This document shows, piece after piece, positions 27,001 to 30,000 of a stretch of DNA of 30,285 nt (within the stretch, counting starts at the first letter, position 1; every line of letters begins with the position of its first letter). Position numbers: made by a program. The stretch comes from a virus (lineage: Duplodnaviria; Heunggongvirae; Uroviricota; Caudoviricetes), in IMG/VR virus record IMGVR_UViG_2703718804_000003; one strand, written 5' to 3'.

Positions 27001-30000
27001 GATTTGTGATTTAAGTCGGATAATTGTCGTTGCCATTAAGCAGAGGATTGATGACCTACAGGGTGGCATTGTTAGAATAAGACTTATTCTTATCTGTGCC
27101 GGGAATGAAAATGAAAAGAAACCTTCCGTTAATTATTTTGTTGTCTTCTCTGGTTATGGGCTGTACGCAACATAAAACAGATATGCCCCGACAGTTGGTT
27201 AAGGCATTACCACAATATCCGGCCTATGCAGCGGCAAATTATATAAAGGGACGGGTTGATGTGAAGTTTGATATTGGTGCTGATGGTACTGTCACCCGAA
27301 TTGAGTTTATCCGTTCAGAGCCGCACCATTTGTTTGATGAGCAGGTTGTAAAGGCGATGGCAAAATGGCGATTTGAGAAGGACAGGCCGTGTAAAGGCGT
27401 GAAGAAAACGTTTATCTTTAGTCCTTCTGCACCCTGATTATTTCATCAGAAATTAATTATCACTCTGTTGTTATTCTGTACATCCCGGCAGGGTAAGTCT
27501 TGTTCCGTCGGATATGAAGATGAAATATTGTTGGAGGACAGTGGGTACCTGCTCCTGTAACCGAACGTTCATTTCTCGTTATTTTTCATGCTGGCCGGGC
27601 GCAGATGCGTTGCATCTGTTGCCAGCCTTCTCCTGCAGGCTTCAATAACCCACGCTGAAAAGTTTCCTGAACCTTTCAGATCAAGAGCGATGTTAATTTG
27701 TTCAATCATCTGGTTTGGAAATCGGATGTTGCGGGTTGTTGTTCTGCGGGTTCTGTTCTTTGATGACATAATGTTTCCCCATATTCAGTGTTGCTGATTT
27801 GTATTATCTGAAGTTGCTTTTACGTTAATTTGATGCAGATCAATCAATACGATACCTGCGTCATAATTGATTATTTCTCGTGGTTTGATGGCGTACACAC
27901 ATGTTGTGATAAACCTTATATAGATGATAATCATTATCATTTCGTGGGTCCTTTCCGGCGATCCGGGCCGTTACGGGGCGGCGACCTCGCGCGTTTTCGC
28001 TATTTATGAAAATTTTCCGGGATCCATGTCCGGTTTCTCTTCAAGTTAACTATATGAAAAATATAAAAACAGGTCTTCTGTGAACCGGACATGAACAAAA
28101 AACAGACATGTAAACCGGACATGGCCGGTTTTGTTGTGATTGTGAGGTGAGAGTTTTTGCGAGGTGAGGAGTGGCTACGCAGACTGAAGTTGCCAGGCAT
28201 TTAAGTCTGACCGATCGCCAGCTTCGCAGATTGCAGAAATTGCCGGGTGCCCCGATATCGAATAAGCGAGGGCAACTGGATCTGGATGCCTGGCGCGATT
28301 TTTACATATCGTATCTGAGAAGAAGTAAAAACGATGTGCCTGATGGCGATAGCGAAGACGACTATGAGGAGAAATTGCTTATTGCCAGATGGGAACTGAC
28401 AGCAGAACAAGCTGTTACACAGCAGTTAAAAAATGAGGTGTCAAAAGGAAAACTTATTGACACCGGGTTCTGTATTTTTGCCCTCAGCAAGCTGGCAATG
28501 GCGTTATCCAGTACGCTTGATTCCATCCCTTTATCCATGCAACGACAGTTTCCTGATTTAACACCGCGCCATCTTGACCATCTGAAAACCCTTATTGCGA
28601 AGGGGGCAAATCAGTGTGCGCGGGCAGGGGATAAATTACCGGATTTACTCGATGAATATATCAGAGCAACAACTGAATAATATGATGAGTGCTGTCACAA
28701 CAGCATTACAGCCCCTGATAAGGGCATTGCCGGTGACGCCAGTTGAATGGGCTGATCAAAATTATTATCTGCCTAAAGAATCCTCATACGGTGACGGAGA
28801 ATGGAAAACGCTGCCGTTCCAGGTCGCCATTATGAACTGTATGGGTAACGACCAGGTTCGCACGGTTAACCTGATTAAATCTGCCCGTGTTGGCTATACA
28901 AAGATGTTGCTGGGGGTGGTCGGGTATTTTATTGAGCATAAATCACGAAACAGTCTGCTTTTTCAGCCCACGGATTCTGCCGCTGAAGATTTTATGAAGT
29001 CTCACGTGGAGGCGACGATTCGGGATGTGCCATGCCTGAAAGACCTTTCCCCATGGCTGGGTCGTAAACATCGTGATAATACCCTCACGCTGAAACGTTT
29101 TTCATCGGGCGTGGGTTTCTGGTGCCTGGGCGGGGCTGCCGCTAAAAACTACCGTGAAAAATCCGTGGACGTGGTCTGCTATGACGAACTTTCCTCGTTC
29201 GAACCGGATGTCGAAAAAGAGGGTTCGCCAACCCTGCTTGGGGATAAACGTATTGAGGGCTCTGTATGGCCCAAATCCATTCGCGGCTCGACGCCTAAAA
29301 TCAAAGGCACCTGCCAGATCGAAAAAGCGGCCAACGAGTCGGCGCATTTCATGCGTTTTTATGTGCCCTGCCCACACTGTGGGGAGGCGCAGTATCTGAA
29401 ATTTGGCGATGAATCCACGCCTTTTGGCCTTAAATGGGAGAAGGACAGCCCCGAAAGCGTTTTCTACCTCTGTGAACATCATGGCTGCGTGATCCATCAG
29501 TCTGAGCTTGACCAGAGCAACGGGCGGTGGATCTGTGAAAACACGGGGATGGGGACCCGTGACGGTCTGACGTTTTTCAGCGCCGCGGATAATGAAATTC
29601 CGCCGCCGCGATCCATCACGTTCCATATCTGGACGGCGTACAGTCCGTTCACCACCTGGGTACAGATTGTCTATGACTGGCTGGATGCACTGAAAGATCC
29701 CAACGGCCTGAAAACCTTTGTGAACACCACGCTGGGCGAGACCTGGGAAGAGGCCGTGGGCGAAAAACTCGATCACCAGGTACTGATGGATAAGGTCGTG
29801 CATTACACGGCGGCGGTGCCAGCCCGGGTGGTTTATCTGACGGCGGGCATTGACTCGCAGCGAAACCGTTTTGAGATGTATGTCTGGGGATGGGCTCCGG
29901 GAGAGGAAGCCTTTCTGGTGGATAAAATCATCATTATGGGACGTCCTGATGAGGAAGAGACGCTGTTACGTGTGGATGCGGCGATCAACAAAAAATACCG

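Follow-up and report, generated by a model that had tools for sequence, protein, structure and literature searches.

TonB docks on the TonB boxes of TonB-dependent outer-membrane transporters through its C-terminal domain, and in FhuA the TonB-box residues pair in parallel with β-strand 3 of that domain (PMC11658791). That a phage lipoprotein can silence such a transporter from the periplasmic side is known from Llp of phage T5, an outer-membrane lipoprotein which binds the periplasmic face of FhuA and whose fold matches many small phage proteins in a viral structure library (bioRxiv 10.64898/2026.03.26.714494). Llp, and likewise Cor of phages phi80, N15 and HK022, blocks the receptor of its own phage. 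A further precedent is artificial: Howard, Herrmann, Stratilo and Braun reportedly found in 2001, to go by the title of their paper, that periplasmic fragments of TonB inhibit transport through FhuA and FecA. Here, we have analysed a gene in a stretch of Caudoviricetes DNA of 30,285 nucleotides (nt) (IMG/VR record IMGVR_UViG_2703718804_000003; the whole stretch is called the window) and show that it codes for a small lipoprotein with a complete TonB C-terminal domain. That this lipoprotein engages TonB boxes, as its homology to TonB suggests, is the best single hypothesis. As an explanation of its function we tentatively favour, at somewhat less than an even chance, an iron-regulated decoy that would occupy the TonB boxes of TonB-dependent transporters.

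The lipoprotein resembles Llp and Cor in being a small phage lipoprotein of the outer membrane (as predicted from its sequence) that is proposed to occupy transporters from below, whereas its fold and sequence are unrelated to theirs. A relative of Cor or Llp was ruled out by fold searches: no match in the viral structure library was significant (E ≤0.001), and the matches in the PDB were TonB and TolA domains only, with no Llp among them. While Llp and Cor act on the receptor of their own phage, the prophage of the window has a lambda-like tail-tip protein J, and for a TonB mimic one would expect many targets among the transporters and not FhuA alone. The closest experimental model, as far as the title of the 2001 study describes them, is provided by the engineered TonB fragments, in which the C-terminal part of TonB is likewise present in the periplasm without its energy-coupled anchor. 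Those fragments, on the same reading of the title, are artificial, soluble and over-expressed, whereas the window protein is natural, predicted to be lipid-anchored, 39% identical to TonB and probably iron-regulated.

The TonB domain and its lipid anchor

A TonB C-terminal-domain-like region had been noticed in the lipoprotein in a preliminary description of the locus, and we show that the domain is complete. The Pfam model TonB_C (PF03544) matched with E=1.3e-14 (54.8 bits against a cut-off of 24.6) and TIGR01352 (tonB_Cterm) with 54.6 bits against a cut-off of 27.1, and a phmmer search of PDB chains returned the E. coli TonB C-terminal domain in entries 1u07, 2gsk, 2grx and 1xx3 with E values of 6e-16 to 2.5e-15. 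The alignment to TonB is gapless, starts at Pro26 of the lipoprotein and covers TonB Pro153 to Lys231, the complete domain, at 39% identity, with lipoprotein residue n corresponding to TonB residue n+127. The positions of TonB Y163, P164, F180, G186, F202, W213, Y215 and F230 are all matched in this alignment: Y36, P37, F53, F75, W86, F88 and F103 of the lipoprotein align with Y163, P164, F180, F202, W213, Y215 and F230, the tyrosine at 215 being replaced by phenylalanine. What is shared with the C-terminal domain of E. coli TonB (residues ∼150-239; PDB: 1u07, 2gsk, 2grx) is the fold, the YP motif, Gly186, the aromatic cluster and the WR(F/Y)E motif.

An AlphaFold2 model was built from an alignment of 22 family members. 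Its mean predicted local distance difference test score (pLDDT) is 85.5; the score exceeds 90 over residues 26-104 and is low only in the signal peptide and the tether. The modelled domain has strands at residues 47-55, 61-70 and 94-103 and helices at 38-42 and 76-83. When the model was compared with the PDB by Foldseek, the best match was BtuB-bound TonB (2gsk, chain B), with FhuA-bound TonB (2grx, chain C) close behind, both with a target-normalised template modelling (TM) score of 0.91 and a root-mean-square deviation of 1.1 Å. TonB domains of Salmonella, Pectobacterium (FusB) and Pseudomonas came next, and TolA domains scored much lower. The structural similarity to the TonB C-terminal domain, on which the preliminary description had made its proposal depend, is therefore present in the model, which overlays receptor-bound TonB.

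Judged by its sequence, the lipoprotein is not a bona fide TonB energy transducer. It is made of a signal peptide, a tether and the domain only, with no membrane anchor and no proline-rich rod, and it follows that it would have no energy coupling to ExbB-ExbD. The five NCBIfam equivalog models of full-length TonB gave 49-74 bits against cut-offs of 265-448. Unlike E. coli TonB, which has an N-terminal anchor, a proline-rich spacer and a link to ExbB-ExbD, the window protein is predicted to be anchored by lipid to the outer membrane.

The gene had been placed at 27105..27437. The gene, its lipobox and its stop codon are borne out, but translation most likely starts at the ATG at 27111 rather than at 27105, because the RefSeq annotation uses 27111 and because the ATG at 27105 reads ATA in five of 82 near-identical loci, as it does in the allele of phage 21 that is described below. 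The signal reads MKRNLPLIILLSSLVMG/C, with the lipobox L-V-M-G/C and threonine at position +2. In all 22 aligned family members Cys18 is invariant, and the residue at +2 is Thr, Ser, Ala or Val and never Asp. Aspartate at +2 is the signal that retains lipoproteins in the inner membrane. Since the window lipoprotein has Thr at this position and no such signal, it is expected to be sorted to the outer membrane.

The structural matches also bear on a different use of the domain, in which the lipoprotein would pair with the C-terminal domain of the cell's own TonB and pin TonB to the outer membrane, shutting down or localising the Ton system while the transporters are left untouched. Strand-exchanged dimers are one form that TonB C-terminal domains can take; among the best structural matches is the dimeric crystal form 1u07 (target-normalised TM score 0.88-0.90), the sequence also matches the strand-exchanged dimer 1ihr, and the core residues are as in TonB. 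Moreover, the TonB-deficient outcome of such a trap would agree with the effect of periplasmic TonB fragments as stated in the title of the 2001 study. We nevertheless regard trapping as improbable, as the relevance of TonB dimers in cells is disputed and the identity of the lipoprotein to TonB is only 39%.

Relatives, alleles and candidate Fur control

Proteins of the same design, 104-132 residues long with a lipobox and a TonB domain, were found by profile search and genome scan in Raoultella, several Klebsiella, Pantoea, Erwinia, Sodalis and one Salmonella. Most of them (in Raoultella, Klebsiella, Pantoea and Erwinia) are encoded by stand-alone chromosomal genes outside prophages, and in Raoultella, Klebsiella, Pantoea agglomerans and Salmonella the gene lies alone among ordinary chromosomal genes. 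The neighbours vary by genus, with lacZ-lacI nearby in Raoultella and Klebsiella and a major facilitator superfamily transporter and a dehydrogenase in Pantoea, and no partner gene for a transporter or a binding protein is shared by the chromosomal members. In a neighbour-joining tree the family forms a clade of its own, apart from the TonB domains of Escherichia, Salmonella, Pantoea, Proteus and Providencia, and this separation from E. coli TonB has a signature in a Tyr in place of Arg166 together with the motif SEPxHLFDD. The E. coli phage alleles make up a sub-clade, and a copy from a Klebsiella phage groups with the chromosomal genes of Klebsiella and Raoultella. By these sequence comparisons the family is an old paralogue of the TonB domain. 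A recent capture of the 3' end of a host tonB gene was ruled out by the separate clade, by the 39% identity to E. coli TonB and by a synonymous divergence (dS) of 1.37 between the two E. coli phage alleles.

Beside some family members something further was seen. In an uncultured Pantoea genome, a gene for a pore-forming colicin (1196-2278, − strand; Pfam Colicin, E=2e-33) and an integrase gene are found 1-2 kb upstream of a family member with a Fur box of 17/19; this neighbour may be a coincidence, notable as it is given the proposed link to colicin entry. At the Raoultella and Klebsiella loci (5425-5857 at two of them, L003 and L008, and at related loci), a 142-residue glycine-zipper protein with an outer-membrane lipoprotein domain (Rick_17kDa_Anti) directly precedes the family member. 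A hypothetical protein of 123-136 residues also precedes it there, and these genes may form a small envelope gene cluster.

In E. coli the window allele was found in 414 of 5,426 complete genomes, being counted as present where at least 80% of a 701-nt query was covered, and it also occurs in phages JLK-2012 and Lys8385Vzw and in several Shiga-toxin 1a (Stx1a) phages. A second allele, that of phage 21, has 72% protein identity to the window allele and is present in 1,221 of the 5,426 genomes, including those of Nissle 1917 and the type strain ATCC 11775; the depositors of phage 21 named its product 'TonB C-terminal domain protein' by BLAST similarity alone. One copy with 40% identity is carried by a Klebsiella phage and another by a Sodalis prophage, both between the lysis genes and the terminase, and this slot, with the TonB-domain gene flanked by lysis genes and terminase, recurs in phage 21, the Klebsiella phage and the Sodalis prophage.

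The two E. coli phage alleles differ by a dS of 1.37, with a ratio of nonsynonymous to synonymous rates (dN/dS) of 0.13. That the ratio is so low at such a divergence indicates a real, selected gene, and by sequence the two alleles are old lineages under purifying selection and not debris. A decaying pseudogene is ruled out for the intact alleles by the same ratio, and frameshifted copies do exist. In many database copies of the phage-21-type allele (P0010, P0012, P0013, P0018, P0019, P0021 and P0057) frameshifts replace or remove the last β-strand, and one frameshifted cluster has 130 members. Since the frameshifts hit this strand, function appears to be lost frequently in some lineages. One such copy is annotated as 'truncated TonB-like membrane protein encoded within prophage'.

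In each family member, the 70 nt that precede the start codon were scanned against the Fur-box consensus GATAATGATAATCATTATC, with an empirical p value taken from the sequence of the same locus. Among 20 relatives outside the named phages (the Sodalis prophage copy included), 16 have matches of 13-17/19 at −25 to −54, and p is ≤0.013 in 15 of these 16. Many of the 16 loci are orthologous and not independent events, but they cover several genera and different genomic contexts. The highest matches are those of the Sodalis prophage and one Pantoea genome (17/19), followed by Pantoea agglomerans, Erwinia typographi and Klebsiella sp. R390 (16/19). The promoters of tonB, fepA-fes and fhuA are Fur-controlled, and on the same scale the operators of E. 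coli K-12 score 12 for tonB, 13 for fepA-fes and 14 for fhuA. These comparisons make it likely that the family is controlled by Fur. For the window copy, whose best match AATAAGACTTATTCTTATC scores 13/19 (Table 1), we give Fur control about an even chance.

The preliminary description had drawn attention to a perfect 8-bp inverted repeat, AGAATAAG-A-CTTATTCT at 27074-27090, as having the look of an operator for a dimeric regulator. The repeat is exactly as described, and its position over the −10 element and the expected transcription start fits an operator. The regulator is more probably host Fur than an unnamed dimeric protein, to go by the sites of the relatives and the score of 13/19. By count alone the palindrome is not significant, and its significance comes from its position over the promoter: in the window there are 12 inverted repeats that are perfect over 8-nt arms, with spacers of at most 10 nt, against 5.5±2.9 in shuffled sequence, and with a spacer of at most 1 nt there are two against 1.0 expected, 63% of the shuffles having at least one. 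An operator of the phage's own repressor was ruled out, there being no second copy within three mismatches anywhere in the window. An RNA hairpin or terminator was also rejected (−11.5 kcal/mol, z=−1.3 against shuffles, and no U-tract).

A chance inverted repeat in an AT-rich promoter, or the operator of a dimeric regulator other than Fur, is a serious alternative to a Fur site, and we rate it only a little under even. Perfect inverted repeats of this size are common in the window, 17 sites in the window match the Fur consensus at 13/19 or better, and in the register of its own 8-1-8 symmetry the palindrome scores only 11/19. Moreover, in the more widespread phage-21 allele the −10 block TTGTyAGAATAAGAC and the left arm TTGTCAGAATAAGAC are kept, the sequence just before the −10 block is not, and the right arm is gone through a 13-nt difference. 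Among the 82 close relatives the palindrome is intact in 76, and variation in its arms is not clearly below that of the flanks. Against chance or another regulator, the 14-17/19 sites of the relatives, one prophage copy included, lie at the same offset from the start codon as the window site, the window sequence GTTAGAATAAGACTTATTCT agrees with the Erwinia family box TTGAGAATAAAACTCATTAC at 14 of 20 positions when compared by hand, the site overlaps the predicted −10 and scores the same as the fepA-fes operator, and the lack of a second copy gives nothing to suggest a phage repressor.

A second perfect 8-1-8 palindrome, ATGATAAT-C-ATTATCAT, has its core at 27924-27940 (within 27917-27944), just upstream of cosN, and matches the Fur consensus at 15/19. 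We take it to be a conserved lambda right-end sequence of the cosQ region, and as lambda right-end sequence next to cosN it was rejected as a part of the lipoprotein system.

Because most relatives are chromosomal and linked to iron, the role of the family could be wider than phage exclusion, namely a cellular one under iron limitation. It could be that the lipoprotein helps the Ton system, as an accessory factor of the outer membrane that is induced by iron starvation and that phages carry for its benefit to fitness in iron-poor habitats, the gut among them. Such a helper might keep TonB boxes occupied where these are idle or ligand-free, leaving scarce TonB to meet the transporters that are loaded; it might dock periplasmic binding proteins close to the transporters, or it might stabilise transporters. 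The strong Fur-box-like sites before most chromosomal members, which is the pattern of tonB, fhuA and fepA, would suit a helper, as would the fact that the gene is kept on its own, outside prophages, in the chromosomes of Raoultella, Klebsiella, Pantoea and Erwinia, and the strong purifying selection. We consider a helper unlikely all the same. No Ton system is known to need a factor of this kind, and E. coli K-12 transports well without a TonB-domain lipoprotein. No consistent neighbour encoding a transporter or a binding protein is found. Soluble periplasmic TonB domains, by the title of the 2001 study, inhibit transport and do not stimulate it.

A candidate decoy for TonB boxes

Our tentatively favoured explanation would work as follows. 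The mature protein would be a TonB C-terminal domain held on a seven-residue tether beneath the outer membrane, where it would dock on TonB boxes by pairing its last β-strand with the box, as TonB does. In 1999 Cadieux and Kadner are said to have cross-linked TonB residues 160-163 to the Ton box of BtuB, which would put the N-terminal end of the domain near the receptor and be compatible with a short tether to the outer membrane. Having no energy link, the docked domain would compete with TonB as a decoy, and entry that depends on TonB would be lowered for phages such as T1 and phi80, for colicins and microcins, and also for siderophores. In a lysogen the gene would be transcribed from its own predicted promoter, and a Fur operator would have the protein made when iron is scarce and the transporters are most abundant. 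A second mode would be high-level expression late in the lytic cycle, by read-through of the late transcript.

The ecological logic would be that partial capping could pay under iron limitation, when the receptors in question peak. Several TonB-dependent colicins and microcins are made by their producers when iron is limiting. The preliminary description had speculated on a receptor-blocking exclusion factor, and on our analysis a role in excluding phages or colicins is plausible.

Several observations weigh against a decoy of this kind. The main difficulty is that a decoy induced by iron starvation would also hinder siderophore uptake when it is needed, and this cost sits badly with a family that is kept as a chromosomal gene in several genera. 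The contact surface is not identical to that of TonB, because Arg166 is replaced by a Tyr that is invariant across the family and Gln160 by Leu in the window allele; in the complex reported by Pawelek in 2006, Arg166 is said to contact Glu56 of FhuA. Iron control of the window copy is placed in doubt by the 17 window sites of at least 13/19 and by the phage-21 allele, the commoner of the two, which scores only 9/19 and has no such Fur site. There is no sign of self-exclusion in the manner of Cor through a TonB-dependent receptor, because the C-terminus of J is lambda-like (over its last 270 residues J shares 53% identity with lambda J) and the prophage has no annotated cor gene. No experiment or paper on the function of the window lipoprotein was found in literature searches, and no PADLOC model matches the protein; a component of a known defence system was thereby rejected as a candidate.

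Position in the prophage and implications

The window matches, at 100%, the lambdoid Stx1a prophage of E. coli ARS-C301. The local order is stx1B, esterase, holin, lysozyme, Rz/Rz1, the lipoprotein gene, ylcI on the opposite strand, and the small and large terminase genes (Table 1). The cosN sequence, which we take to be that of lambda cos, puts ∼540 nt between the lipoprotein gene and the right end of the virion DNA; phage 21, in which a cosQ is annotated, is arranged in the same way.

Table 1. Positions in the window of the lipoprotein gene, its parts, its upstream region and the genes and sites around it
Feature	Position	Strand	Remarks
Coding sequence for the TonB-C-terminal-domain lipoprotein	27111..27437	+	108 residues, stop codon 27435-27437 included; RefSeq 'TonB family protein' WP_000828068.1
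Predicted lipoprotein signal peptide (residues 1-17) and lipid-carrying Cys18	27111..27164	+	Read from the sequence
Seven-residue tether TQHKTDM from lipid anchor to folded domain	27165..27185	+	Model confidence is low as far as ∼residue 25
TonB C-terminal domain (residues 26-104, E. coli TonB 153-231)	27186..27422	+	Includes YP motif, aromatic cluster and last β-strand
Upstream part of the insert, carrying the gene's own predicted promoter	26963..27110	+	From comparison with CP-1639, phage 21 and JLK-2012
Predicted sigma-70 promoter	27051..27078	+	−35 ATGACC, 16-nt spacer, extended −10 TGtTAGAAT; consensus scan 9/12 plus TG extension
Perfect 8-1-8 palindrome AGAATAAG-A-CTTATTCT, candidate operator	27074..27090		Overlaps −10 and expected transcription start
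Best Fur-box match AATAAGACTTATTCTTATC	27076..27094		13/19 against GATAATGATAATCATTATC; begins 35 nt ahead of the start codon; empirical p=0.027 in the window
Lysozyme	25473-26006		Pfam
Rz i-spanin	26305..26772	+	Pfam Phage_lysis E=3e-50; ends the lysis cassette, directly upstream of the lipoprotein gene on the same strand
Rz1 o-spanin, embedded in Rz	26525-26710	+	Pfam Rz1 E=2e-21
DUF3950 (YlcI-family) gene	27569-27769	−	Pfam
cosN, lambda-type cohesive end GGGCGGCGACCT	27976..27987	+	Read from the sequence
Nu1-type small terminase	28171-28680		Pfam

The homology of the window to phage CP-1639, which lacks the gene, stops at 26962 and places the left edge of an insert at 26962/26963, and phage 21 and JLK-2012, which carry the gene, are homologous to the window through 26963..27110, the 148 nt from that edge to the ATG. 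The predicted promoter is the sole promoter-like site that a consensus scan found on the + strand upstream of the gene, and transcription is expected to start near 27085. No terminator-like site was predicted on the + strand between Rz and the lipoprotein gene, nor after the gene. Because no such site follows Rz, a Q-antiterminated late transcript should read through the gene and across cos to the head genes. The gene is a probable lysogenic-conversion insert, or 'moron', a class of accessory insert with a promoter and a terminator of its own.

Lambda carries bor in its right-end region. The TonB-domain gene resembles bor and iss in its neighbourhood between Rz and cos and in coding, as an accessory gene, for a small outer-membrane lipoprotein, and it adjoins bor/iss in phage 21 and in Nissle 1917. 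The proteins are unrelated, however, and bor runs opposite to the late genes whereas the TonB-domain gene is on the late strand; bor is absent from the window, where the TonB-domain gene directly follows Rz.

Its position next to the lysis genes raises the question of whether the lipoprotein is a lysis accessory or spanin-like protein, which would be made late and help to break or fuse the outer membrane. Over its full length the protein matches PHROG 1267, labelled 'Rz-like spanin' in the category lysis, with E=7.7e-43; it directly follows Rz/Rz1 on the late strand with no predicted terminator in between, and four unrelated phages have it in the same place behind their lysis genes. A complete Rz/Rz1 pair is already present, however, and the protein has a globular TonB domain instead of being a short proline-rich o-spanin. 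The structure model of the 108-residue protein has no C-terminal hydrophobic segment, and thus not the C-terminal membrane segment of a u-spanin, and most relatives are chromosomal, far from lysis genes and behind Fur-box-like sites. A function in lysis is, we believe, very improbable. The PHROG 1267 match is one of family membership and not of function, and its label may come from tools that call lysis-adjacent lipoproteins spanins. It has the look of an annotation error, and one that could be passed on by automated annotation of phages.

Other features were observed near the gene and elsewhere in the window. The non-coding sequence at 26783-26962, after Rz, has ∼88% nucleotide identity to phage 21, against ∼73% for the TonB-domain gene, and is common, at 98-100%, to many Stx phages without the lipoprotein gene; this pattern suggests that the lysis cassette ends in a functional element that has gone unrecognised. 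Inside the lipoprotein gene an antisense sigma-70-like site (TTCACA, 16 nt, TATAAT; 11/12) at 27238-27265 on the − strand points toward the gene's promoter, and it may be a by-product of the codons for AANYIKG or a source of antisense RNA. Rfam models found no known RNA family near the lipoprotein gene. Above their gathering scores they found the small RNA STnc100 (194 bits) at 21089-21302, immediately downstream of stx1B, and the pair of isrK and C4 antisense RNA at 13163-13239 and 13264-13351 in the early region. Two hypothetical open reading frames, one on each strand at ∼24379-25347 and annotated in the identical RefSeq prophage, split the usual adjacency of holin and endolysin. At 6210-6248 the window has 39 N, masked or unsequenced.

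The gene has already been annotated by its domain, as 'TonB family protein'. As far as literature searches show, there is no earlier description of the fixed design in which a lipid anchor and a short tether carry a TonB domain, of a family clade distinct from TonB, of how prevalent the gene is among E. coli prophages or of the family's Fur-box pattern. One or the other allele is present in about a quarter to 30% of complete E. coli genomes, and Stx1 prophages, phage 21, Nissle 1917 and the type strain are among the carriers. The Fur-box pattern makes iron limitation a concrete condition under which a phenotype could be sought. Should the lipoprotein instead assist the Ton system, a transport machinery that has been studied very thoroughly would have an accessory component that had gone unrecognised.

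In its broadest form, which we hold to be rather doubtful, the decoy would be a natural 'anti-TonB': an iron-regulated copy of the TonB docking domain, tethered to the outer membrane, that is carried by enterobacterial temperate phages and some of their hosts and caps the TonB boxes of many transporters at once. If this were true, a broad and tunable tolerance to TonB-dependent phages, colicins and microcins under iron starvation, when their receptors are abundant, would be conferred on lysogens, which make up as much as ∼30% of sequenced E. coli (Nissle 1917 and Shiga-toxin strains among them), through a general, receptor-independent exclusion by mimicry of a host motor protein. Capping of TonB boxes would also give the laboratory-made, dominant-negative TonB fragments their first counterpart in nature. 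Prophages would have in it a new route by which to alter the sensitivity of their hosts to phages, colicins, microcins and siderophore-linked antibiotics, and it would bear on phage therapy, on bacteriocin-based competition in the gut and on how Shiga-toxin strains acquire iron.

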